Notes under the pieces: model-generated
What the model was told of the DNA's origin: nothing
The model's database searches: none
The model's input: only the letters and a program-made list of their open reading frames with translations
Shown: in pieces, positions 30,022-43,167 of the stretch
How positions within the stretch are numbered: position 1 is the first letter of the stretch
Layout: each line of letters opens with the position of its first letter
Position numbers and translations under genes: made by a program
NCBI GenBank assembly: GCA_963793305.1
Contig: CAWBZV010000005.1
Location: 192,001 to 256,000 of the forward strand
Direction of reading: 5' to 3'
Length of the DNA: 64,000 nucleotides
Origin: an uncultured Gemmatimonadales bacterium
Lineage (GTDB): Bacteria > Gemmatimonadota > Gemmatimonadetes > Gemmatimonadales > Gemmatimonadaceae

Positions 30022-30609
30022 ATGAGCCATCGCCGCGGATACACGCTGATCGAAATGATGATCGTAGTGACGCTGATCGCGATCGTCACCGCGACCGCGA
30101 TGCCGCACATCGATTATCAAAACTCGCGCCAGGACGGCGCGGTGCGCGCCATTCGTGGCGCGCTGCAGCAGGCGCAGTCGTACGCCGTGAGCTCGCAGCA
30201 CGAGGTGTGGGTCATCGTCGATGCCGCCCACAATCGGGTCATTGCGGTTCAGGATCCGTCGGATAGCAACAAGTACGTCATCGGCGACCATTATTGGGCG
30301 GTACCCATGCAGGACGGCGCGAAGCTCGGGCTCGGCGCCGTCGCGCCGTTGACCGGTGACGCGGCGCCGGTCGCTGGAGTCGCGATCACGACCACGACGC
30401 CCATCACGGCTGGCGCGCTGAGCACCGTGCCGACGGGTTTTGTGTTCCGCGCCGACGGCGCGGTCAGCTCCAACGCGCAGATCTATATCACGTCGGCCCG
30501 CGGTCTCGCGAGAGATTCGAGAGCCATCGATGTCACCCAGGCGACAGGACGCGTCGACTGGTACCACTACAACGCCACGACCAACACTTGGGTCCTCGGG
30601 GGCTTCTGA
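30022..30609 (+). CDS. FimT/FimU/GspH-like minor pilin
   Basis: RRG/YTLIEMMIVV, LQQAQSYAV, FVFRADG, TGRV. Confidence 0.85.
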   Translation: MSHRRGYTLIEMMIVVTLIAIVTATAMPHIDYQNSRQDGAVRAIRGALQQAQSYAVSSQHEVWVIVDAAHNRVIAVQDPSDSNKYVIGDHYWAVPMQDGAKLGLGAVAPLTGDAAPVAGVAITTTTPITAGALSTVPTGFVFRADGAVSSNAQIYITSARGLARDSRAIDVTQATGRVDWYHYNATTNTWVLGGF

Positions 30610-31019
30610 TGTCTCACGCGACGGCAGGACGCCAGATGCGTCCCGGTATGACACTGATCGAGGTGATGGTCGCCTTGGTGATTCTGAGCGGCTCCTTGCT
30701 CGCAATGGGCAATTTCATGGGCAAGTTCGCCCACGCCCAGCGCCGCGCCGGGATGCGCGCCGACGCGGTGGACCTCGCGTCGGACGTGATGGATTCGGTG
30801 CAACACGATTCGACGTACGCGGCGATTCCCGGCGATTTCCAGAAGTCGGCCACGATCTCCCGCGACGGCGCGTCGTTCACGCGCTCGACGGTCGTCAAGC
30901 AGATCGGCGGCGCCGTCACGTCGAACGTCAACTATTACGTCATCACGACCACCGTGGTCAACACGCAGCTGACGCCGGCTGACACGGTGAAAAAGTCCAT
31001 CGTCATCCGGTCCTTCTAA
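30609..31019 (+). CDS. PilV-like minor pilin
   Basis: RPG/MTLIEVMVALVIL; TGATG coupling with the upstream gene. Confidence 0.82.
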   Translation: MSHATAGRQMRPGMTLIEVMVALVILSGSLLAMGNFMGKFAHAQRRAGMRADAVDLASDVMDSVQHDSTYAAIPGDFQKSATISRDGASFTRSTVVKQIGGAVTSNVNYYVITTTVVNTQLTPADTVKKSIVIRSF

Positions 31020-31021
31020 CT

Positions 31022-32218
31022 ATGCCACACAACGCCCTTCACTCCGGTGGCCGCGCGCGACGCGGCTTCACTCCGCGTCGCGGGTTCACGCTGACCGAGA
31101 TGATCATCGCGACGACGATGCTCGGGCTGTTTGGTGCCAGCGCGATCACGTTCTACCTGCGCAGCCTGCGGTCGGTCAGCAACACCGCCGGCCGAAACGA
31201 CGCGCAACAGAACGCGTCGTTCGCGCTCGACTTCATGGACCACGACCTCCGCATCGCGGGCACGGGCCTGGCGCAGAGCCAGCCGCTGTTCATCGCGGCG
31301 ACCAACACCTCGCTCGGGTTCAACGCCGACCTGATTACGCACGACACGTCGGCCTCGGCTCCCGGGACCTACTATGATCCGAGCGTGCCGGATTCGGTGG
31401 CGCTCGCGTGGCAGCAGTCCTCGGCGCAGAACATGAAGAATTCCTCCATCGCGTATCCGGAGTCCACGTTCCACCAGTCGGCAGGCGTCATCAGCGCCGC
31501 CGAGACCGTGCAGTTCTGGCTCACCCTGGATCCGACCCCGGGTGCGCCCGCCAATCGCTACTATATGATGCGCCAGGTGAACGGCAATGTGCCGTCGATC
31601 CTCGCGAAGAACATCTATTACAATCCGGCGACCTCAACGCCGCTGTTCCAGTACTACTACGTCGACTCGACGAACGCGCTGCACCAGTTCCCGACCGCGC
31701 GCATCACGGCCGGGTTCTTCCACAACGCGACGAGCCAGGCGACGCTCGATTCGATTCGCGAAGTGCGCGTGACCCTCACGGGTTGGTTCACGGATCCACA
31801 CAACGGCCAGAACGTCTATCGCACGGTGAACGAGCAGATCCGCATGCCGAACACGTACATGTCGCGGATCGCCGAGTGCAACAGCCCCCCGAGTCCCGTG
31901 GTGAGCTTTTCGGCTACCCCGAGCACGGGGGGGCAAGACACCGTGGGTCTGACCTGGGCCCCCTCGCCCGATGACCAGGCGGGGAAGAAGACCGTGCGCA
32001 TGTACCTGATCTACCGCAAGAAGCACACGGACACGACGTACGTGCAATTGAACAGTGTCACCCCGCAGGTCCCACTGCCGGGGACGTACGCGTACGACGA
32101 CACGCAGTCGGGCGGTGGTCTCGTCTTGACCACGCCGTACGACTACGAGGTCGTCGCGCGCGACTGCACGCCGGCGTTGTCGTCGGCGGTAACGCAAACC
32201 AATGTCACACCTCACTAG
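31022..32218 (+). CDS. PilW-like minor pilin with a C-terminal fibronectin-III-like domain
   Basis: RRG/FTLTEMII, AQQNASFALDFMDHDLRIAG; C-terminus LTWAPS...YLIYR...YDYEVVA. Confidence 0.8.
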   Translation: MPHNALHSGGRARRGFTPRRGFTLTEMIIATTMLGLFGASAITFYLRSLRSVSNTAGRNDAQQNASFALDFMDHDLRIAGTGLAQSQPLFIAATNTSLGFNADLITHDTSASAPGTYYDPSVPDSVALAWQQSSAQNMKNSSIAYPESTFHQSAGVISAAETVQFWLTLDPTPGAPANRYYMMRQVNGNVPSILAKNIYYNPATSTPLFQYYYVDSTNALHQFPTARITAGFFHNATSQATLDSIREVRVTLTGWFTDPHNGQNVYRTVNEQIRMPNTYMSRIAECNSPPSPVVSFSATPSTGGQDTVGLTWAPSPDDQAGKKTVRMYLIYRKKHTDTTYVQLNSVTPQVPLPGTYAYDDTQSGGGLVLTTPYDYEVVARDCTPALSSAVTQTNVTPH

Positions 32219-32231
32219 CCCGGAGCCGCTC

Positions 32232-34560
32232 ATGACCCCGTTTCGACTCCACCGCACCGCGGGAGCCAAGGGCCGAGCAGGCTCCGCGATGATCTTGGTG
32301 CTGCTGCTCACCTTCGCGCTGGCGGCTCTCGCCGGCTCGGCGATTCTGCTGTCCTCGACCGCGACGCAGACCGTCAAGTCGCGCGAGAGTGAGAAAGACT
32401 TGCGCTACGCGGCCGACGCCGCGATCGCCATTGGCGAGAGCCAGATCGAGACCGATCCGACGACCGTGCCGTTGTCCGGATATACCCAGATCGCGACGAA
32501 TGCGGCGATGCTCGCCGCGGACTCGACGGTGATCCCCCACCTCACGTACAACCTCTATGTGGGGCCGACCGGTTCGGTCACCCGGCAAAACGGTCGCTTC
32601 GTGACGCTGATCGCGCAGTCGATGGACACCGCGCACCACCGGTCGTTCATCCGCCGCGTGGAGCTCATGCAGGAGACGTTCGCGAAGTTCGCCTACTTCT
32701 CGAACAGCGAGAACGGCATCTGCTTCGGGTCCGGCGACATTCTGTACGGGCCGATCTTCTCGAACAGCTTGATCTCGACCTGCGGTCCGCCGCAGGTGGC
32801 CACGTTCGAGGACTCGGTTGAGATCAGCTCACAGGCGGCGAGCCCCGGATTCTCGAACGGGAATCCGACGCAGGACTCGCTCAAGTACGGCTTCCGATAC
32901 CCGGTCGCCCCGATTCCGCTGCCGTCGACCGCGCACCTGGCGAGCCTGTTCACGTTGGCGTCGAATGGGAGTACCCTGTTCACATTGCCGAACACGAACA
33001 CGGATTCGACCGGGGATCTGCACTCGCGGCTCGAGTTCGATGCGTACAACGACTCCAACCCGACGCTCGGCGCCGATTCGATCGCGACCGGCCAGGGATT
33101 CGTGAAGTTCTATCAAATCGACGAGACGAATACCTACTGGACAACGAACTTCGCGTCCGGCACGAAGCGTGACTCGGCGGCCGCGGCGTATCTCCGCGCG
33201 GGGCTCAACAAGCGCGGCGACTGGCACAACTGCGGTGACTGGCACTACGTGCTCGACTCGTCCGCGAAGCTCGCCGGCGCCACGAGTCCCTACCACTGGG
33301 AGTTCTTCCCGGAAGCGGTGCATGACTCGGCCTGGTTCAAGACCGCGGTCACCACGTCGCCATATTCATGGACGGACGGGAACGGCAACATTTATCGGTT
33401 CGCGAGCCCGTACGCTCCGACGGTGGCCGGCCTCGACTCGAATTTCATGATCCTCGAGAACGCGGCGCACAATTGGTTGCACAACTATCCGACGGTCGCC
33501 AGCACGAACACCGAGTGGAAATACGTCAAAGCCGGTACGCTGGGCTCATTGGGCAACCGAGTGCTGACGATCACGCCGAGGCGTGACGCCCAGTCGCCGA
33601 ACCCGGTGTGCTACCCGGGCGGCGATCCGCACCTGGTCTCGATGGAGCGTACGGGCTGGAAGAACACAGCTATCCTGGGAACTCCGGGTTACGGCTGGCG
33701 CGGCGGCGTGGACAGCACGTTCACGTACGCGAGCGGTGGCCCGGCCCCGACGATCCCGGCCCTCGCCGGCCTCGGCCACTGGGTGGTCTGGCCCGGAACC
33801 GCGATCTCGTGGGCGAACACCAACTTCAAGGGCAACCACGCGGACTGGGCCGCGCTGTTCCCGGTCGACACGACGCTCAACCCGGGGTTCAAGGGCGTGA
33901 TCGGCGTGCATGGCTCGACCGGCGTCAGCGGGAACGTCGACGGGCACGTCACCCTCTACATCGATGGCCAGGTCGGGATGATCGACAACCTGCGCCTGAC
34001 GACGGACCAAGGGGACTCGACGTGTGAGCACGGGATTGGAATTGTCTCGAGTCAGAGCGTTCTGGCGACCGATAACGCCCTCAACGTGCCGCAGCACTGG
34101 AACCTGAACGACTTGAACGGGACACTCGACTCGAACTGGGTCACGCTCCGTGACAACAACTCGGGCGGCAACGGCACCAGCACGTTCGGCGGCTCGCTGT
34201 ACGTCGAGTCCACTGTCATGGCGCTGAACTCATGGGGCGCCGAGGGACTGACCGCGGACAGCTCGTACACGTCCAGCGTGCTCTGCGCGACGACGGCTCC
34301 GCCGGACAACATCTGACAAGCGCGGCTGCCTGTACGTCTTCGGCAGCATCATCCAGAACTCGCGCGTCACGGTGAACTCGGGCTCGGGCGGCGCGGGCGG
34401 GTACGGGTACGCGAAGCGCTACCAGTATGACATCTGCGCGGTCACCAACCCGCTACCGTACTTCCCGACGACCGGGCGATTGATCGAGAATAAGTACTAC
34501 GAGCACGACCCGAACCGCTTCAACGTCGCGGCGCTGTACCAATCGTTGCAGGGTCCGTGA
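32232..34560 (+). CDS. Large PilX-like minor pilin/adhesin; one-base insertion near 34315 gives a premature TGA
   Basis: RAG/SAMILVLL (no Glu5), ETFAKFAYF, GPIFSN; the shifted frame continues KRGCLYVFGSIIQ...GYAKRYQYD...PLPYFPTTGR to the stop at 34560. Confidence 0.78.
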
Positions 34561-34795: not shown

Positions 34796-35223
34796 ATGCC
34801 GAAGTACGTACTGGACACGAACGTCTACGTCGATAGCGTCGCCACCGAGTCTGCGGCCGCGGGTCTCAAGCGATTCCTGCGCGCGCACCTGGGGCGCACG
34901 TTCTACAGGAGCTCCGGGTCGGCGCGCGCACACCGGAACAGGTAGAAGCACTGGTCGAGGGGGTTATCGCCCCGTTCGAACGTCGGCGAAGGCTCTTCGC
35001 GCCATCGCCACACGCGTTCGCCGAATGCGGGCGTGTGCTCGTCGACCTCACCGTGCGCGAGGGCATCGCGTACGCCGATACGAGTCGGTCGCTGGTCAGC
35101 GATGTGCTGCTCGCGACCTCGTGCCACGAGCAGGGCATCACGTTGGTCACCAGCGACGGCGACTTCAAGGTCATCGCCCGGCACCTGAAAGGGTTTCGGC
35201 ACGTCTCGCCGTTTCCGCGCTGA
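34796..35223 (+). pseudogene. PIN-domain (VapC-like) toxin, disrupted
   Basis: MPKYVLDTNVYV, frameshift near 34903, then LQELRVG...DVLLATSC..GITLVTSDGDF. Confidence 0.8.
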
Positions 35224-35774: not shown

Positions 35775-37330
35775 AGATCCTGCTGACGCTGACGGATGTC
35801 GAACCCGCGGTGCGCTTGAACGCGCAGCTCGAGCAGTCGGGCGTCGAGACAGAGGTCGTCTCGCCGCTCGACGACATTCGCTCGAGCATTCGCCGCTTCA
35901 AGCCGGACATCTTGGTCTTATCCGGCGCCTTGCTGGATCCGCAGAGCGTGTCGCTCGTCCGGGAAGAGCTGTGGGATGGGACGCCGGTCGTGGGCCTCTC
36001 CGATGTGGGCGACCCCGAGATGGCCGAGCGGCTCCGGACTTTGGGCTACACTGAGATCTACGTCAAGCCGATCGTGTTCTCGGACGTTGTTGCCGGTCTG
36101 CGGCGCCTGGCCGACCGGCGTGCGCTGGCCGTCGCGACTGGCCTGTATGGCGACTCGCCGGGCATCCGCGAGGTGCTGGTCAAGGTCGAGCAGATGGCGC
36201 CGGTGTCGAGCACCGTCTTAATAGAAGGGGAGAGCGGCACCGGGAAGGAGCTGGTCGCCCGCGCGATGCATCAATTGAGCCCGCGCCGCGGGAAGCATTT
36301 CATCGCGGTGAATGTCGGCGCCTTGCCCGAGACGCTGGTCGAAAGTGAGCTCTTCGGACATGAGAAGGGCTCGTTCACCGGAGCGGCGGAGCGTCGCATC
36401 GGCCGGTTCGAGCTTGCCGACACTGGCACGCTTTTTCTGGACGAGGTGGGAGAGATCCCGCCCAGTACGCAGGTCAAGCTGCTCCGCGTGCTCGAGGAGC
36501 GTGAGCTGACGAGGGTCGGGGGGACGCAGCCGATCAAGGTCGACGTGCGGGTGATCGCGGCCACGAATCGGCCGCTGCGCGATGCGGTGGAGCAGGGGTC
36601 GTTTCGCTCCGATCTCTATTATCGGCTCAACGTGCTCGAGATCTACTTGCCGCCGCTGCGCGAGCGGAAGGAAGACATCCCCATCCTGGTTCGGCGGTTC
36701 ATCCAGGAGTTCTCGGCGCAACACGACCGGCCATTCCACGGGATCTCATCGGACGCGATGCAGGTGTTGGTCGACTATCCGTGGCCGGGCAACGTGCGCG
36801 AGTTGCGCAATCTCGTCGAGAGCATGGTGGTGCTCTCCCCGGGACACGAGATCGGGCCGACCGATATTCCGAGACAATTTCGCGACGCGAGCGCGCGCTT
36901 TCTTCCGGTGCCCGTGGGGCCGCTCCTGCGGGGGCGTGACGGCGTCGACGGGCGCGAGATGGAGTTCATCGTGCGGAGCCTCGTGGAGCTCAAGCTCCAG
37001 GTCGAGGAGTTGCGCCGTCGGATTGACGCTGAGCGTGCGTCGCCGGGGTGGGTGGGCGAGCTGCAGCCGGTGGGCGGGGCGGGCGGACTGCCGCCGGTGG
37101 GGCTGCCGGCAGGGATCGAGCCGCGCGATTCTGCGCCAGTGCCTAATATCGTGACAATCAGCCCTGGGATGACGATGGCGCAAATTGAGCGTGCGGCCAT
37201 CGAGGCGGCTTTGAAAGAAACACGTGGAAACCGAAGAAAGGCCGCCGAGATGTTGGGGATCGGTGAGCGTACGTTGTATCGCAAATTGCGAGAGTACCAG
37301 ATTCCCGATGCAGCGATGGTGCTTGATTAA
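35771..37330 (+). CDS. Sigma54-dependent transcriptional activator with an atypical receiver-like N-terminus
   Basis: [32 protein letters not shown]-terminal HTH ([21 protein letters not shown]). Confidence 0.9.
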
Positions 37331-37463
37331 AACGACTTACGTTCGCATATTCGATCGCGCTCTGAAGTAAGTACATCCGTTGGTTGTGGGACACTTCGAC
37401 CTGCGGGGACGGCGATGTCGTTAGTCGTCCGCGTCACTTTCTCACCGGACACTCGGAACGCCG

Positions 37464-38201
37464 TTGCCAGGTCCAGCCAACTTGTCCTCTCAACTGTCGA
37501 GTTCGCCACTGTCGATTGCAGGCAGCGTGTTGCCGATTCGGCGTGCGGAAGAGTTGTTGGCGACGTTGCCCGGCATCGTCTCGGCGAAGATCGTGGTATC
37601 GGACGCGGGCACGGTCGACGAGATTCACGTGCTCACGACGTCGGAGTACACACCAAAGCAGACGGTGCGCAACATCGAGAGCGCGTTGATCGCGCATCTC
37701 GGGATGCGCGTCGATCATCGCAAAATTTCGGTCGCCTCTTCGAGCGAGCCGCCCAAGCCGCGCGAGACGGCGATCGATCCGGCATTAGTTCAAGCCGTCG
37801 CCGAGGATCTAACTCGGCGACGTTTGTATTTCGAGGACGTCGAGGTGCGCCGGTCGCGCTCGCGCGGGGTCACGTGCCGCGTAACGCTGCGGAAGGGCGA
37901 CTCGTCTTTTGTAGGAGAGGCCGAGGGCGCGGAATCGGAGCGTGCCCGTGTCGACCTCGCTGCGCGCGCGGCCATCAAGGCGATCAGCCAGGCCGAGCGC
38001 GGCGAGCGCACGCTCGCATTGGATGGCGCCAAAGTGATTGACGCCTTCGACCGCGCGTTTGTCTTCGTCGGCGTGTCCGCTCGCGTGGGGCGCGAGAGTG
38101 CGCTCCTCACGGGCAGCTGTGAAATCAAGGAGAGCGCCGAGACGGCGAGTGTGCTCGCCGCGCTTGACGCCACGAATCGATGGATCGCGTACGGGCGGTA
38201 G
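37464..38201 (+). CDS. Conserved-looking hypothetical protein (two domains); start uncertain
   Basis: DEIHVL...PKQTVRNIESAL...VDHRKISVA N-domain and an alpha/beta C-domain ending AALDATNR; host-like codon usage. Confidence 0.75.
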   Translation: MPGPANLSSQLSSSPLSIAGSVLPIRRAEELLATLPGIVSAKIVVSDAGTVDEIHVLTTSEYTPKQTVRNIESALIAHLGMRVDHRKISVASSSEPPKPRETAIDPALVQAVAEDLTRRRLYFEDVEVRRSRSRGVTCRVTLRKGDSSFVGEAEGAESERARVDLAARAAIKAISQAERGERTLALDGAKVIDAFDRAFVFVGVSARVGRESALLTGSCEIKESAETASVLAALDATNRWIAYGR

Positions 38202-38222
38202 CAATCGCACGGCGTGCGATTG
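38202..38222 (+). terminator. 9-bp hairpin immediately after the stop codon
   Basis: CAATCGCAC-GGC-GTGCGATTG; no U-tract. Confidence 0.4.
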
Positions 38223-38345
38223 AGAACGGGCGCGGTCTGTGATGGGTGAGTGAGAGGTCAGTGGCACTGCTCGTTGTGGGAGCGATGACATTCGAGCATC
38301 AGACCCTTTTCCCTCTGCCAACCAGTCACGAAAGTAGATCAAAAC

Positions 38346-38546
38346 TGAATCCCCCGTTCGCGGACGAGCGGAGCTGAGCGGGCTTACACCCGAAATCCGA
38401 GCGGAGCCTACCACGAAGCGCATGAGGCGCAAGCCTGCATGCGACTACGACAGGGAGGTGACGCCGAGTGTTGAGTCTCCTGCTCAAGCTATTCGGAATG
38501 TGCGCTGTAACCATGGGTTGGGAGTAGTTCCGCGAACGGGGGTTCA
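38346..38546 (+). other. Structured RNA element closed by a long-range inverted repeat and containing the small ORF
   Basis: CCCCCGTTCGCGGA (38351-38364) is the exact reverse complement of TCCGCGAACGGGGG (38529-38542), extendable by TGAA/TTCA; internal hairpin CGCATG-AGGC-GCAA-GCCT-G-CATGCG. Confidence 0.65.
38468..38527 (+). CDS. Unannotated 19-aa hydrophobic peptide MLSLLLKLFGMCAVTMGWE
   Basis: Near-ideal SD AGGGAGGTG (38452-38460) 7 nt before GTG; TAG at 38525-38527; 29 nt upstream of the HD-GYP gene. Confidence 0.65.
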   Translation: MLSLLLKLFGMCAVTMGWE

Positions 38547-38556
38547 ACACCGCACA

Positions 38557-39972
38557 ATGAAACGAACTCCGATCGTAATCTTCGCAGCGGCCAGCACTAT
38601 TGTCACCTGTGCCGTAATCTGGCTGCTGTATGAGCTGGCGCCCATTTCGCTGGCCGCTAATCCCGTGGTGCTCGGCGAAATCATGGTACTCGCCGCTATC
38701 GCTGTGATCATCGATCACACGCGTGTCAAGCTGCAGGGCGGAGCGAACATTACGATCTCCTCGATGGCGCTAGCTACTGCGGCGCTGTTGGTGCCGGATT
38801 GGGCGACCGCATTGGCAGTTGCTGCATCCAGTACGGCAACTCAAGTCTTGGCGCGCAGACCAGCAGTTAAGGCTATCGTCAACGTAAATGCCACAACACT
38901 CGCCCTGGCGGTTGCTATAGCCGTTCATCGGCTTACTGGTGGCAGCTCATTGCTCCTATTCGCCAACAAGTCGCCGGTCACCGCACTCTACGCATTTTGG
39001 TGGAGGGTGCCGCTCTTCGTCGTGCTCAGCTTTTTGATTTCGGCATTTGTCGTGGGGATTGCGATTGCTTTGTCTACGAAGAGCAGTGTAGTTGATGTTT
39101 GGAAAGCGAACCTTCGCGAATCGCCCTCGGTAATGTTGATAACCACTCCGGTACTCGCCTTGTGTGCCGGTTGCGCTGTTTATCTCGGTTTGCCGGGGGC
39201 TATTCTAGTTGCGTTAATACCGATGGCTTCGATTCGACGGCTTGTCGATCAGAATAAGCAGCTAGGTGTGCGCCAGGCAGAACTTGAGCAACAAAAGGCC
39301 GCACTTGAACGGACGCACAAAGAAGTACTGCAGCTCATTGTGCTGTCGATCGAAGCTCGCGACCCTTACACGTCCGGCCATTCGCAGCGCGTACAGCACA
39401 ATGCAATGATCTTTGCGCGTGGCTTAGGCTTCGATGACATTCAGGTCCACAAGATTGGCGTAGCGGGTGTGCTCCATGACGTTGGCAAGATGGGCGCGCA
39501 GTATGCACCTATTCTTGCAAAACCCTCCAAGTTGACCGCAGAAGAGCGCGCAATCCTTGAGCGCCATCCGGTAGATGGCGCGAATTTGGTGGGAACAATC
39601 ACTGAGCTCAGCGACATAGTTGATGTCGTGCGCCACCACCACGAGAATTGGGATGGAACTGGCTACCCTGACCGACTTCAGGGTGAGAGTATCCCCCTTC
39701 ATGCGCGGATTATCCGAGTTATAGACACGATAGATGCGATGACGACCGTGCGTCCTTACCGAGCTGCACTCGGGGAGGCGGATGTGCGCTCAGAGCTAAT
39801 CAAGTACAGAGGAACGCAATTCGACCCCGCGCTTGTTGATGCTTTGTTGCAGCCGCACGTCTGGGCCACGATCTTTCCGCCTGTCGCGCCGAGTATACTC
39901 GCGCGTGAATTCACTCCACGATTTGGGGTACGGCGAGTAACCGCCGAGGGGCTCAAGATTAGCCGAGGTTAG
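38557..39972 (+). CDS. Membrane-bound HD-GYP cyclic-dinucleotide phosphodiesterase
   Basis: Multi-TM N-terminus, coiled coil, EARDPYTSGHSQRV, LHDVGK, HHENWDGTGYP, DAMTTVRPYR. Confidence 0.9.
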   Translation: MKRTPIVIFAAASTIVTCAVIWLLYELAPISLAANPVVLGEIMVLAAIAVIIDHTRVKLQGGANITISSMALATAALLVPDWATALAVAASSTATQVLARRPAVKAIVNVNATTLALAVAIAVHRLTGGSSLLLFANKSPVTALYAFWWRVPLFVVLSFLISAFVVGIAIALSTKSSVVDVWKANLRESPSVMLITTPVLALCAGCAVYLGLPGAILVALIPMASIRRLVDQNKQLGVRQAELEQQKAALERTHKEVLQLIVLSIEARDPYTSGHSQRVQHNAMIFARGLGFDDIQVHKIGVAGVLHDVGKMGAQYAPILAKPSKLTAEERAILERHPVDGANLVGTITELSDIVDVVRHHHENWDGTGYPDRLQGESIPLHARIIRVIDTIDAMTTVRPYRAALGEADVRSELIKYRGTQFDPALVDALLQPHVWATIFPPVAPSILAREFTPRFGVRRVTAEGLKISRG

Positions 39973-40020
39973 CTCGGCTGCCTCGCTGTCATGCGCCGGT
40001 TGAGCGAGTGGTCAGACCCT

Positions 40021-43000
40021 CTAAACCAGAAGATGCTCAGCCTTCAGCCCGAACAGGGCAGTTAAGTAAGCAGGCGCCGCATACCGCTCCCTTCGATGGT
40101 TGCGAAGGTATTCTACCAGGATGGTTTTCGCCCGAGCTTCTTGATTCTGGGCCAGCAGCGCCTTGCAAAGCGCGAAGGCGGCGAAGTCCTGATTTCCCAG
40201 CCCCTGTAGGCGTCTGAACTCGTGCTCAAGAGTCGATATTAGCTTCGTGGGCCGATGAACTCTGTCATGAGTAAACGCTAACAGCGTGGACAGAGCCAGG
40301 AGGCAGTGTTTAATGCGGCCGCCGGACTGGCTGGTTTGACTTCGCCACTTTCTGAACGCCCGTGCGTTGCATATGCGCATGGCTTCTTTCTTGGTTCCAG
40401 CGATCAGGGCAATCATCGCCCTAAGCTGCGCGATATCTATTGCCCGATAGGGAAAACGACGCCGATCTTCAGCCGCGAATAACGTGATCCAATAGATCTC
40501 GCGCTGAGCTGAACTCTCCTTGCTCGATGAATGTTTCGCCAATCTGAGTGAGTGTGGCTAGTACATAACTGCGGCTTTGCATCCACTTAACCAGTTGCAA
40601 AGCTTCGTCCAAAGCAGCGCGTGCGTCGTCAAATCGGCCGAGAAACCTCAAGGTCAGGCGTGTCGTCGGAGACTCTGCGCGAGAAAGGTTGTGGATCCAC
40701 TGAGACGCGCGTAGGTGACCAGAGCATTACCTGCTTGTGCACCCTTTTCGAGGTCGCCGACATAGGTGTCGAACACCATGGACATCGTCAACAAGTCCAC
40801 CGGTCGAACCGTGACTTCGCCCGCGAGCGAAAGAAGGCGGTGGTGGAAGTGCTTGAGGCGCATGGGGTCATGCAGATTGAATGCGCATATCATCGCGCAG
40901 ATACCCGCCCTGACACGGGTGTCAGGTGCTGCGGAGTCGTCGGCAAGACACGTTGAAGCCTCAATGAGGAGGGGTTCCACATCCTCAAGCGCGTACATCC
41001 GCGCCTCCAATACGTCAATTTGCCACTGAGACCAAGCCGAGCTCCCGATGCGGAGGGCCTTTCGCAACCGGCTAACTTCAGCGGCCGCCCGCGATACTCC
41101 TGCCAGATCGCCCACAGCGAGCAGTGCCGGGATGATGCTTTTCCTGAACCAGTACGCGCTCGTGGTCACTCTCACACCATTCGACCGCATGCCGCCACAT
41201 CGCAGTAGCTTCATGCGGAAGCCCGAGCTTGAGGAGCCGGTCGCTACACCGTCCGAGCATCGCGATCGCTTCGCGATGCAGCCCCGCCAAGCGGTAATGA
41301 TTCGCGCAATCCCAGAGCAGGCTAGAATCGTGCGGCGGTTCGAGTTCTGGATGAAGCACGTCTCGCGATTCTTCCGTGAGCCAACTGGGCTGTCGTCGAG
41401 GTAAGCCGGGCGCAAACCAGAGTTGGCGAGTGTACTATGCATGCAATGTGCGACGCCGTGCTCCCATCGTATGAAGCCCTTGTGTTCCAGGCTGTCCATC
41501 CGACTGACGAGCTCCACCTCTGGGAACTCCAATAGACGCTTCAGTCTGCCCCGTCGTCGTATGCTGTCCAAGCATCGCGATCGTCTGAAGAACGAGCAGT
41601 TCGCTTTCCGCAAGGGTCGCCAATGCGCTCGATGCAGCGCGGACTCGATCGATGGTGGTATGGGATGTCGATGTCCACAACTTTCCCAGTAACGAGCCAA
41701 CTCGTGCATCAACCGTGGAGAGCCACACGCCATCTCGATGTAGAGAGATTCCAGATCTGTACTGAGTCCGCCGTGGTGTGTTGACGTCAGGAGGCGCAAC
41801 AACTCACCCGACTCCGTCCGGGTGAGCGGGTCGAGCGCGTGCGACCGCAAGCCTCGATTGAGCGTCGCGAGCCGTGCCGCCGACCCTGATGGGTCTCGCG
41901 CGGTCATGAGCACAAGCAACGATCTGGAGTGGCTGGTTGCCACGAGGTCAGCAACAATTTCGATCGACTGTTCGTCAGCTTGATCTATATCATCGATAAC
42001 CACGAGCAGGCTGACCTCGTGAGTTACAGCCGCAATGAGATCCAGTATCGATTGCTTAATACCCGCGTAGATAAATGACGGCGCATCCTGGCCATCAGAC
42101 GCGACAGGCATCTCGAGAGACTCGCCCGTCAATTTTCGTAAGTATTGCAGGGAGGCTGGCGAGCAACCAATGGCGCCGGGAAGGCGTTGAATCGCTGACA
42201 CGACCTTCGTCAGCACCGATAACGGGCATCGTGATTCACTCGGCAAACATTCCGCGTGCACGACGCTGATGCCCTCGAGCGCCGCGGTGCGGCTGATCTC
42301 CTCAATGAGCCGAGTCTTCCCCAGCCCCGCACCTCCCTTGACAAGGTAACCACCACCCGAACTTCGTCGCATATGCCGAACCATCGTGGTGATCGCGGCG
42401 ATCGCGGATTCGCGACCAATGAGAGGCGACTCAGCGGGCGTAAATCGGTCGGAGATGCGTTGCCGCAACAGTGCACTCGGCAGTCCCACACTGGACGCAT
42501 GAGCGGCGAGATCCTTCTTGTATCGCTCCAGCAAACGCACGGCCCCGATCTTATTGCCTCCCATCGCTCTGGCTTCTGCAAGACCAAGCGTGGCTTCTTC
42601 GTTCAACGGATCGATAGCCAGGCAGCGAAGAGCGGCCGCCTCCACTTCGAGCCAACGCCCATTTTGTCGCCGGACCCCGATGGAAGCCACAAGGCCGTTG
42701 CAAATCTGGAGATTGACCTGGTCCCGCAGCTCTTGAAGCCAACGATCGAACGTCCGAGAGACGTTCGGAGAGTAGCCAGGCAAGAATTCTCTCAACAGTG
42801 GCCCGAAGTCCTGTTGGCAACTCGCAATTGCTTCGCGGTAGTCGATGCTGACGGCCTCGGCCAGTAACCCAACACTCGCGTCATTCGCGACCAGCTGGAT
42901 GCCGGCCCGCTTCAAGGCGTAAATGGTCTGACGCAGTCGATGACGAGCCTCGACGTCGCGCGTGTCTGGCCACAACAGTGATTGGAGTGTAGAGCGAGGT

Positions 43001-43167
43001 AGCAGTTTGCCCGCCTCTATGACGAGTCGTAGCGACGCCGCAAATAGCATGTGTGATCCCGGCTCGATTCTGTGCCCAGCGACTTCTACCGCGCAATCAC
43101 CCAGAGACCGCAGCGTTATCACCGATGGCTGCGAGCGCTCAGAACCGGCCATTCCAAAACTCCTCAC
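40021..43167 (-). pseudogene. Large SARP-like regulator (wHTH-BTAD-AAA ATPase-TPR), multiply frameshifted (pseudogene or assembly errors)
   Basis: LRSLG...LLWP...RLRQTIYALK, LAIDPLNEEA, LIGRESA, GGAGLGKTRL, VIDDIDQAD; the C-terminal part is distributed over ORFs 41435-41728, 41078-41359, 40469-40651 and 40021-40542. Confidence 0.75.

Follow-up and report, generated by a model that had tools for sequence, protein, structure and literature searches.

The 64,000-nucleotide (nt) window analyzed here (positions 192,001 to 256,000 of contig CAWBZV010000005.1, assembly GCA_963793305.1, from an uncultured Gemmatimonadales bacterium) contains, at 37464-39972 of its forward (+) strand, a module in which an open reading frame (ORF) for a 19-amino-acid (aa) hydrophobic peptide (MLSLLLKLFGMCAVTMGWE, 38468..38527, +) is set between a gene for a two-domain protein (37464..38201, +) and a gene for a predicted membrane HD-GYP phosphodiesterase (38557..39972, +), and is embedded in a predicted structured RNA leader. 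The module is real, conserved and undescribed; it was not found in open-licence PMC and bioRxiv full text. Most likely, it works like a peptide-receptor cassette with a translational gate. Our preferred reading, to which we assign a probability of roughly 0.45, is that the small peptide is the precursor of a ligand for the adjacent membrane enzyme, the ligand being its released, Trp-containing tail.

A conserved peptide gene in front of a membrane HD-GYP gene

The first-pass annotation of the window had pointed to an ORF led by one of the strongest Shine-Dalgarno (SD) sequences and ending 29 nt before the HD-GYP gene, and this arrangement is indeed present: the ORF consists of 19 codons with a GTG start at 38468, separated by a 7-nt spacer from the SD AGGGAGGTG (38452-38460; with its conserved spacer, AGGGAGGTGACGC, 38452..38464, +), and the ATG of the HD-GYP gene, at 38557, lies 29 nt past the peptide stop. 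As for the strength of the SD, the 9-mer has 3 copies in the window and 8 in the 5.7-Mb genome and is complementary to the 3' end of the genome's own 16S rRNA, but the same SD is predicted to be base-paired inside the leader.

Homologous loci were scanned for SD-led small ORFs, a check suggested at the outset. The first set comprised 110 loci containing the upstream gene (30, the window included, plus the best 80 of 285). Of these, 80 extended at least 700 nt downstream, and an HD-GYP match is present in 67 of the 80. A complete, SD-led small ORF precedes the HD-GYP gene in 66 of these 67 Gemmatimonadota loci, and the 67th has one with a weaker SD. The SD pattern was widened once after inspection of the misses and then applied unchanged to a second set of 80 metagenome loci (the best 80 of 568), 50 of them with at least 600 nt downstream; here, a small ORF is found in 48 of the 50, with Trp among the last two residues in 47, and in 41 of the 41 loci that have an HD-GYP match, compared with 1 of 348 reverse-strand control windows. 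The two sets overlap in some organisms and related loci are not independent; on these counts, the peptide ORF is more than a chance occurrence. Among 30 further loci, many from distant families, the peptide was detected in 28, in one more by eye, and one locus lies at a contig end.

The peptides are hypervariable, with a mean pairwise identity of 26%, yet Trp is the last or the second-last residue in 93 of the 99 distinct sequences, all 99 are hydrophobic (grand average of hydropathy, GRAVY, above 0.25), and the hydrophobic moment exceeds that of shuffled sequences in 94. The persistence of the Trp tail and of amphipathicity at so low an identity indicates that protein-level properties are kept while the sequence varies, and the window peptide conforms, being a predicted amphipathic hydrophobic helix with a Trp-x C-terminal tail. 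In 45 of the 93 Trp-tailed peptides, D, E or N stands four residues ahead of the Trp. The combination is rare in the genome at large: of 706 GGAGG-led ORFs of 13-40 aa, 28 encode a Trp at the last or second-last position, and hydrophobicity is added to this in just three, the window peptide among them.

The membrane domain starts at most 60 nt past the peptide stop in 58 of 70 loci. In the other 12, mostly with peptides of 15-18 aa (L020, L097, L098, L108, L109, L112 and others), it starts more than 120 nt downstream, and several of these loci share an in-frame motif, QPRPWGRL, perhaps an N-terminal extension. Two lineages retain the peptide with no receptor gene downstream, L028/L050, where a terminator-like hairpin comes next, and L258; in L231 (G084), too, the peptide gene is followed by a terminator-like hairpin and no receptor, and the receptor of that genome, preceded by a separate leader and another peptide, is found about 13 kb away. 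In some Gemmatimonadales (L214-L217, L233), one small gene, by eye of a helix-turn-helix plus receiver-like type, is located between the upstream gene and the leader, and Trp is missing from the end of the peptide in four of these five loci.

Contigs from four soil RNA libraries, produced in four studies, cover the module (one corresponds to 37476-38802, another to 37373-38547); retrieved with the module stretch and leaving most flanks uncovered, they indicate presence rather than level, strand or translation, and expression cannot be ranked from them.

Block divergence of peptide and receptor

Between strains whose upstream genes are 94-99% identical, the peptide and the receptor diverge as a single block. 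Over 40 complete loci, the upstream protein and the catalytic domain have mean identities of 69% and 68%, the membrane domain one of 35% and the peptide one of 26%. When the window is compared with locus L043, 92-98% of nucleotides are identical as far as the leader; from the middle or second half of the peptide gene to about 40800, the figure is 64-84%, and synonymous divergence (dS) rises from 0.13 in the upstream gene to 1.05 in the membrane domain and saturation in the catalytic domain. Two of the RNA-library contigs change to the L043-type allele exactly at 38493, and three alleles differ only at peptide residues 10-16. In L045, the upstream protein is 94% identical, the membrane domain 22%, and the peptide is unrelated; for the pair L105/L117 the corresponding values are 95%, 32% and, for the peptide, 16%. 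A block pattern of this sort is known from pherotype cassettes.

The membrane HD-GYP protein

The 471-aa product of 38557..39972 combines a MASE9-like membrane domain, a coiled-coil linker and an HD-GYP domain in which, as the first-pass annotation had stated, the catalytic motifs are all intact: EARD (E266), GH, HD (307-308), HHENWDGTGYP (360-370), D390 and RPYR (399-402); the KPG motif reads KPS. The sequence thereby has the HD dyad, HHExh(D/N)GxGYP, the N-terminal loop Glu and RxY[K/R], as these motifs are defined in 10.1101/2021.11.05.467447. Of the two substrates named at the outset, cyclic di-GMP (c-di-GMP) and cyclic GMP-AMP (cGAMP), the former is favored by the RPYR motif, given that, in the main text of 10.1101/2021.11.05.467447, an RPYR-type motif and a loop Glu are tied to c-di-GMP rather than cGAMP. 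The C-terminal half of the structural model (predicted local distance difference test, pLDDT, 87) superposes on HD-GYP structures, with Z 23.1 to the HD-GYP domain of DvhD. By sequence and by predicted fold, then, this is an HD-GYP phosphodiesterase, and hydrolysis of c-di-GMP is its predicted activity. The gene has a GC content of 55.5%, against 64.5% upstream and about 65% in the genome.

As for the membrane domain, 39 of 48 orthologues match Pfam MASE9 at E <=0.01 (best 4e-13), and the clade of the window is a divergent one within the MASE9-like family. That clade (window, at 38557-39300, L043 and L044) also has a 14-residue insertion in the coiled-coil linker, and its membrane domain lacks the YD and FN motifs of the family. 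All 13 VIA matches aligning to residues 4-215, among the 50 listed, are membrane subunits of energy-coupling factor (ECF) type transporters (Z 8.1-13.4, 152-184 residues aligned; the best has Z 13.4 and an rmsd of 2.8 over 152 residues); by their titles they are components for folate, riboflavin, biotin, thiamin, cobalt and cobalamin, and three vaguely titled entries we take to be S-components as well. Foldseek matched two ECF S-component structures weakly (E 0.4-0.8). The MASE9-like domain (about residues 1-215) is accordingly assigned a predicted ECF S-component fold, a six-helix membrane bundle of the ligand-binding kind, and its fusion to HD-GYP suggests sensing rather than transport as part of an ECF module. 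The same fold serves as a sensor in 5TMR kinases, as described in PMC11109136.

Co-folding of peptide and receptor, another check proposed early on, was carried out with a relative's pair, the 31-aa peptide of L045 and its own membrane domain, standing in for the 19-aa peptide of the window, and provides weak support for the pairing. The score is 0.54 against 0.00 for the best control, the runs share at least 82% of contacts and partner pLDDT is at least 64. Of the 157 solved pairs, 116 attain the mark, as do 2 of the 215 mismatched ones, and passes at scores of 0.60 or lower comprise only 18 of the 157 solved pairs and both of the passing mismatches. The co-fold yielded no interface, and the placement of the Trp in the S-component pocket is one that we infer.

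The receptor membrane domain is present in 89 and the upstream gene in 115 of 151 sampled genomes of the phylum. The former tracks the latter by family: one family, with 13 genomes, has neither, and in another, with 16, both occur in the same single genome. In G040, G138, G122 and G069, where the upstream gene is present, the membrane-domain match is split or carries stop codons, which might reflect assembly error or loss.

A structured RNA leader

The first-pass annotation mentioned neither a structured leader nor the probable regulatory role of the upstream protein. The segment 38330-38565 folds with z = -4.1, and a 14-bp helix, formed by arms at 38351..38364 (+) and 38529..38542 (+), the latter beginning 1 nt past the peptide stop codon, is predicted to enclose the entire ORF. 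In most loci, likewise, a strand about 105 nt ahead of the SD pairs with a strand 0-13 nt past the stop. Across 104 loci, the cognate arms beat the mean of swapped arms in 95; they rank first in no more than 9, as C/G runs are common to close kin. Arms from distant families consist of wholly different letters with complementarity kept, and the polarity is reversed at one locus. In a 40-row alignment, from whose sequences the leader structure was itself derived, 82.5% of cells pair, compared with 42-55% for slid partners, and 13 of 25 pairs change on both sides.

Between the arms are tandem AGCG(G/A)-type repeats in 5-base steps (38366..38382, +), a candidate protein-binding site. The motif occurs on average 3.4 times per leader against 0.54 in shuffles (105 loci, 2-6 repeats each), with spacing peaks at 5 nt (47), 10 nt (61) and 15 nt (17). 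The last repeat, together with the anti-SD GAGCGGAGCCTACC (38399..38412, +), is predicted to pair over the SD and spacer and hence to hide the ribosome-binding site of the peptide gene. In 104 of 105 loci, a repeat takes part in the best duplex over this site, and in 96 of 105 the duplex is better than those of shuffled leaders; 96.6% of cells in the helix are paired, and it is near-invariant, with little covariation, within the family, the paired letters differing between families. Next comes a variable hairpin (38416..38446, +) with a covarying base stem, in which 3 of 4 pairs change on both sides and 85% of cells are paired. The leader also contains invariant unpaired nucleotides and is single-copy where checked. 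Rfam 15 yields no match at E <=1 in the window stretch and none at gathering score in 10 related loci.

Several other accounts of the leader were considered and set aside. A 14-mer motif found in 54 of 151 genomes raised the idea of a regulon; among 30 fetched loci, however, the full leader occurs only at the module, the rest look like chance, and a reversed control of the motif also matched. Nor does the 3' arm generally hide the SD of the HD-GYP gene, as in distant families it has no SD-like run at the right distance. A classical terminator or attenuator is argued against by the weak U-run (mean 1.7 T in the 8 nt past the helix); in the window, no terminator was called at the leader helix, and instead of tandem control codons the peptides usually have a single Trp codon, in terminal position. 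The stretch 37200-40300 yielded no sigma-70 promoter; a sigma-54-like site spotted by eye near 38263 deviates at one base and lacks conservation.

The upstream protein

The 245-aa upstream protein was described at the outset as uncharacterized and two-domain, and so it appears: it has no Pfam or NCBIfam match above cut-off, and the model (pLDDT 82) comprises two domains. The closest named relatives (98-99%) belong to Gemmatimonadaceae metagenome-assembled genomes. A PDB sequence search with its profile gave no match, an Atlas search returned only Gemmatimonadota clusters, none of them named, and of the 2776 representatives matched by the profile at E <=0.001, ten were looked up, none carrying a functional name. 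A scan of viral contigs with the Natranaerobius protein found no match. One contig labelled as Terriglobales (L100, DASTGW010000210.1) encodes an upstream protein 100% identical to that of Gemmatimonadaceae locus L102 and is probably misbinned.

The C-terminal domain has, according to the model, the allosteric fold of LeuA and citramalate synthase: the top eight Foldseek matches are all LeuA (E 4.9e-6 to 7e-5), and VIA aligns 110 residues to the regulatory domain of LiCMS (Z 9.2, rmsd 3.2). By sequence, the LeuA allosteric domain is recognized in only 1 of 90 members (E 0.03). The LeuA allosteric domain binds a branched-chain amino acid, and the domain here is a putative amino-acid sensor. Many relatives show a second, weak LeuA-like-domain match, and a stand-alone paralogue of this domain alone, with no repeats nearby, is encoded at G000:C2:593691-594104 (L002). 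The N-terminal, alpha-beta-beta-alpha-beta domain contains most of the conserved residues, including the basic K65, R69 and R86 (103 distant members). From its position, co-occurrence and charge, the upstream protein appears to be a candidate RNA-binding switch for the leader. The repeats and the protein occur together in Gemmatimonadota and in both of the Bacillota records described below. One genome has an additional leader, with its peptide and receptor, on the opposite strand and about 13 kb away from the upstream gene, which fits an action in trans.

Related loci in other phyla

The first-pass annotation stated that such genes and short peptides neighbor membrane HD-GYP genes in other phyla, and this holds in the three named records that were checked. 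Natranaerobius and Subdoligranulum (Bacillota) each have an upstream homologue, a hydrophobic ORF of 25-28 aa, a related membrane HD-GYP gene and a further gene; in Natranaerobius, the HD-GYP gene is split and the further gene is annotated as DUF5317, and the Subdoligranulum peptide has no Trp. Both leaders carry repeats and an enclosing helix, and both peptides, by eye, resemble signal peptides with a short C-terminal piece. In the actinomycete Nonomuraea, a 34-aa ORF ending in SWT, with no repeats in front, precedes a related receptor.

A different arrangement emerges in Acidobacteriota, where 26 MASE9 genes were collected from 14 genomes within a 101-genome sample of the phylum of a Terriglobales-labelled genome. 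Eleven of the 26 are directly preceded by a long ORF whose end encodes six-residue Trp repeats (L130, L135-L137, L143-L146, L148, L150, L152); the repeat-tailed protein is a subtilase in 9 of 10 scanned, and D, E or N stands four residues ahead of the Trp in 35 of 64 repeat units, as in 45 of the 93 peptides. No convincing small ORF was found at these 26 genes, and the stretch 5' of them contains at least three AGCG(G/A) per 150 nt in 2 of 26. The upstream-protein profile matched in 0 of 13 Acidobacteriota genomes with MASE9, a search that had no positive control and shows little. Some of the MASE9 genes appear, by eye, to be fused to kinase or GGDEF parts.

A model of the module and its alternatives

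So how could these parts work together? In the model that we favor, peptide synthesis would be off by default, as predicted from the pairing of the last AGCGG repeat with the ribosome-binding site. On sensing an amino acid or a short peptide through its LeuA-type domain, the upstream protein would attach to the 5-base repeats and thereby free the site, and a ribosome reaching the peptide stop codon would open the enclosing helix and could couple synthesis of the receptor to that of the peptide. Once translated, the peptide would be anchored in the membrane by its amphipathic helix, its last six or so residues, ending in Trp-x, would be cut off and enter the outward-facing pocket of the S-component domain, and occupancy of the pocket would alter, in one direction or the other, the hydrolysis of c-di-GMP via the coiled-coil linker. 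The joint block divergence between close strains would then amount to strain-specific signals, as in pherotype cassettes. The peptide-receptor pair supposed in the first-pass annotation is in this way backed by synteny, joint divergence, the predicted ligand-binding fold, the Trp-tailed neighbors elsewhere and the weak co-fold pass, binding itself being the step that we infer. A wider proposal, which is tentative but not far-fetched, is that of a new class of bacterial peptide signaling, in which Trp-tailed peptides, micropeptides here and subtilase repeat tails elsewhere, are the ligands of MASE9, an S-component-fold receptor wired directly to c-di-GMP breakdown, with alleles swapped between strains as pherotypes and peptide output set by a new AGCGG-reading RNA-binding regulator that senses an amino acid or the peptide itself.

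A considerable number of observations weigh against the released-ligand reading or parts of it. Six of the 99 peptides have no Trp in the last two residues and four have none at all; the tail of the window peptide, VTMGWE, lacks the acidic residue ahead of Trp; and K or R occurs within the first six residues in only 20 of 99. Joint divergence is also to be expected from the physical linkage of peptide and receptor: in 12 disjoint close pairs, peptide identity correlates with that of the membrane domain (rho 0.65) about as it does with that of the upstream gene (0.63), over all 780 pairs rho with the membrane domain is only 0.17, and the divergent block continues into the downstream STAND gene. 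Covariation of peptide and receptor, initially put forward as a test of the pairing, is thus inseparable from linkage and was discarded as proof of co-evolution. In the pair L075/L081, furthermore, the peptides are 96% and the receptors 68% identical, and positive selection is not seen (the ratio of nonsynonymous to synonymous change, dN/dS, is 0.11 in the membrane domain and 0.57 in the peptide). On the structural side, the window protein scores 19.5 bits against MASE9 (PF20972), below the cut-off of 24.3, and a Z near 13 is borderline for helical bundles. The case for RNA binding by the upstream protein is built on co-location and basic residues, and the matches of its N-terminal fold are generic (cytoplasmic domains of CDF proteins, C-domains of acyl-CoA ligases, ring-building motifs, with Z about 7-8). 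Finally, the locus contains no dedicated exporter or protease gene, and AgrB (PF04647) was not found in the genome itself, which is 92% complete and in which the control was seen only below cut-off.

These last two points would be natural if the peptide were not processed and remained in the membrane, acting there on the MASE9 domain as its small subunit or modulator, with a small molecule as the true ligand; small membrane regulators such as MgrB, which acts on PhoQ, offer a parallel. Hydrophobicity along the entire peptide, in 99 of 99 cases, suits this possibility, as does the tight gene spacing, favorable for stoichiometric co-expression, and the weak co-fold pass was obtained with a full-length peptide. 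However, the helices are amphipathic rather than uniformly hydrophobic and many peptides have only 15-17 aa, the Bacillota peptides look like signal peptides carrying a short C-terminal piece, and the Trp-ending unit recurs as six-residue repeats on subtilase tails beside MASE9 genes. We regard a permanent membrane subunit as doubtful, if the most serious of the competitors.

Somewhat less probable still is that the ORF is a cis-acting leader peptide only, the translation of which opens the helix and licenses HD-GYP expression, possibly in a Trp-dependent manner. The covarying arms, with the 3' arm 0-13 nt past the stop in most loci, fit this idea; an SD-like 4-mer precedes the HD-GYP start itself in only 36 of 84 cases; and synonymous change in some peptide pairs is very low, which points to constraint at the RNA level and thereby detracts from the released-ligand reading. 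Cis action alone would not account for the amphipathicity and tail pattern kept across unrelated sequences, for peptide genes that persist without a receptor gene downstream, for the Nonomuraea peptide with no repeats in front of it, or for membrane domains more than 120 nt away in 12 of 70 loci; moreover, the usually single Trp codon sits beside the stop and is missing from four peptides, and the weak U-run excludes a classical attenuator. Cis coupling is, in any case, compatible with release of a ligand.

All further readings taken together are improbable. In type I toxin mRNAs, the SD is occluded, the two ends pair and the product is small and hydrophobic, traits that the leader and its peptide are predicted to share, and invariant unpaired nucleotides might suggest an aptamer, but a riboswitch, or a toxin-like membrane peptide with an end-paired mRNA, either one making the upstream protein a mere neighbor, is highly improbable given the lack of Rfam matches, the confinement of the full leader to the module among the 30 motif loci fetched, a gene order with upstream gene and receptor that is fixed across two phyla, and repeat steps of 5 bases that would suit protein binding better than an aptamer core.

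Neighboring genes

In close relatives, the module is preceded by a sigma-54 activator gene (58 of 62 loci) and a molybdopterin-domain gene (56 of 62), and followed, on the opposite strand, by a STAND gene (28 of 40). The window has such a STAND-type gene at 40021-43167 (-), facing the module (AAA_16, with a TPR region in relatives; 58% GC); its 3' part lies inside the divergent block, and it is seemingly broken into several frames, through assembly indels or decay. Its product could be a cytoplasmic sensor linked to the cassette. Farther upstream, 30022-34316 (+) holds a cluster of minor-pilin/GspH-type genes with N-methylation motifs, plus a gene for a 704-aa protein with no Pfam match, and a short ORF at 34800-35223 (+) is presumably PIN-domain-like, judging by eye. 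The link to piliation raised in the first-pass annotation is not supported by the relatives: a homologue of the nearest pilus-cluster gene is at most 4 kb upstream in 5 of 62 loci, the short flank limiting this test, and the two Bacillota loci, Natranaerobius included, have other neighbors.

Comparison with known systems

The closest known proteins are MASE9-HD-GYP phosphodiesterases such as TM1467 of T. maritima and HdgA of S. venezuelae, in which a multi-pass membrane domain is likewise fused to an intact HD-GYP domain. The main texts of the respective papers (10.1101/2021.11.05.467447; PMC6205966) name no ligand for MASE9 and do not contain the word 'peptide', and that of the former does not contain 'S-component'. 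The module names a candidate ligand, cheap to synthesize, for an orphan sensor domain that is present in several phyla, and a predicted ligand-binding fold is now assigned to that domain; the upstream and receptor families are, moreover, widespread in an abundant and barely cultured soil phylum. Receptors with the S-component fold, namely 5TMR/LytS-type kinases such as BtsS, use the same transporter-type fold as a sensor (PMC11109136; 'MASE', 'HD-GYP' and 'phosphodiesterase' are absent from the main text). In contrast to these kinases, the module has a c-di-GMP phosphodiesterase as its output and a locally encoded peptide as the proposed ligand.

Among peptide signaling systems, ComRS/XIP and Rgg/SHP of streptococci also have a small ORF beside the receptor gene and a specificity that differs between strains or species, and the mature signal, as described in PMC5131902, consists of the last 7-8 residues and includes a conserved Trp motif. 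There, however, the signal is imported by Opp and meets an RNPP regulator in the cytoplasm (PMC5131902), whereas the neighbor of the peptide in the module is a membrane enzyme, in a diderm phylum and behind an RNA leader. The C-terminal pattern of the peptides resembles, at the sequence level, the active tail of SHP and ComS, and neither flanking gene shows a match to the RNPP/Rgg family or fold. If the peptide is a released signal, members of a diderm phylum would communicate by peptides that act on c-di-GMP with neither a kinase nor a transcription factor involved.

In agr and ComQXP cassettes, the peptide and the membrane sensor domain vary together between conserved flanks, and the peptide has an amphipathic leader. 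Both features recur in the module, but the locus has no AgrB, histidine kinase or prenyltransferase gene and no charged tail after a ring motif: agr peptides carry a ring motif followed by a charged C-terminal tail, whereas 93 of the 99 peptides here end in Trp or Trp-x.

With regard to the leader, the obvious comparison is with proteins of the TRAP/HutP type, which recognize GAG/AAG repeats separated by 2 nt, that is, in 5-base steps, beside a ribosome-binding site, TRAP binding about 11 of them. The repeats of the module follow the same step at a ribosome-binding site and come with a candidate amino-acid-sensing regulator; they differ in number (2-6), the candidate protein has unrelated folds, and it is predicted to free the site rather than to block it. 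TRAP (PF02081) was found in 0 of 21 genomes, the control being found in B. subtilis, and CsrA was not found in the genome of the window. Attenuators of the trpL type, in turn, combine control codons in tandem with an intrinsic terminator that has a U-run, features that the leader does not share. The module therefore conforms to none of agr, ComRS/Rgg, TRAP or classical attenuation, and, quite apart from the fate of the peptide, its leader and the upstream protein would constitute a new translational control pair.

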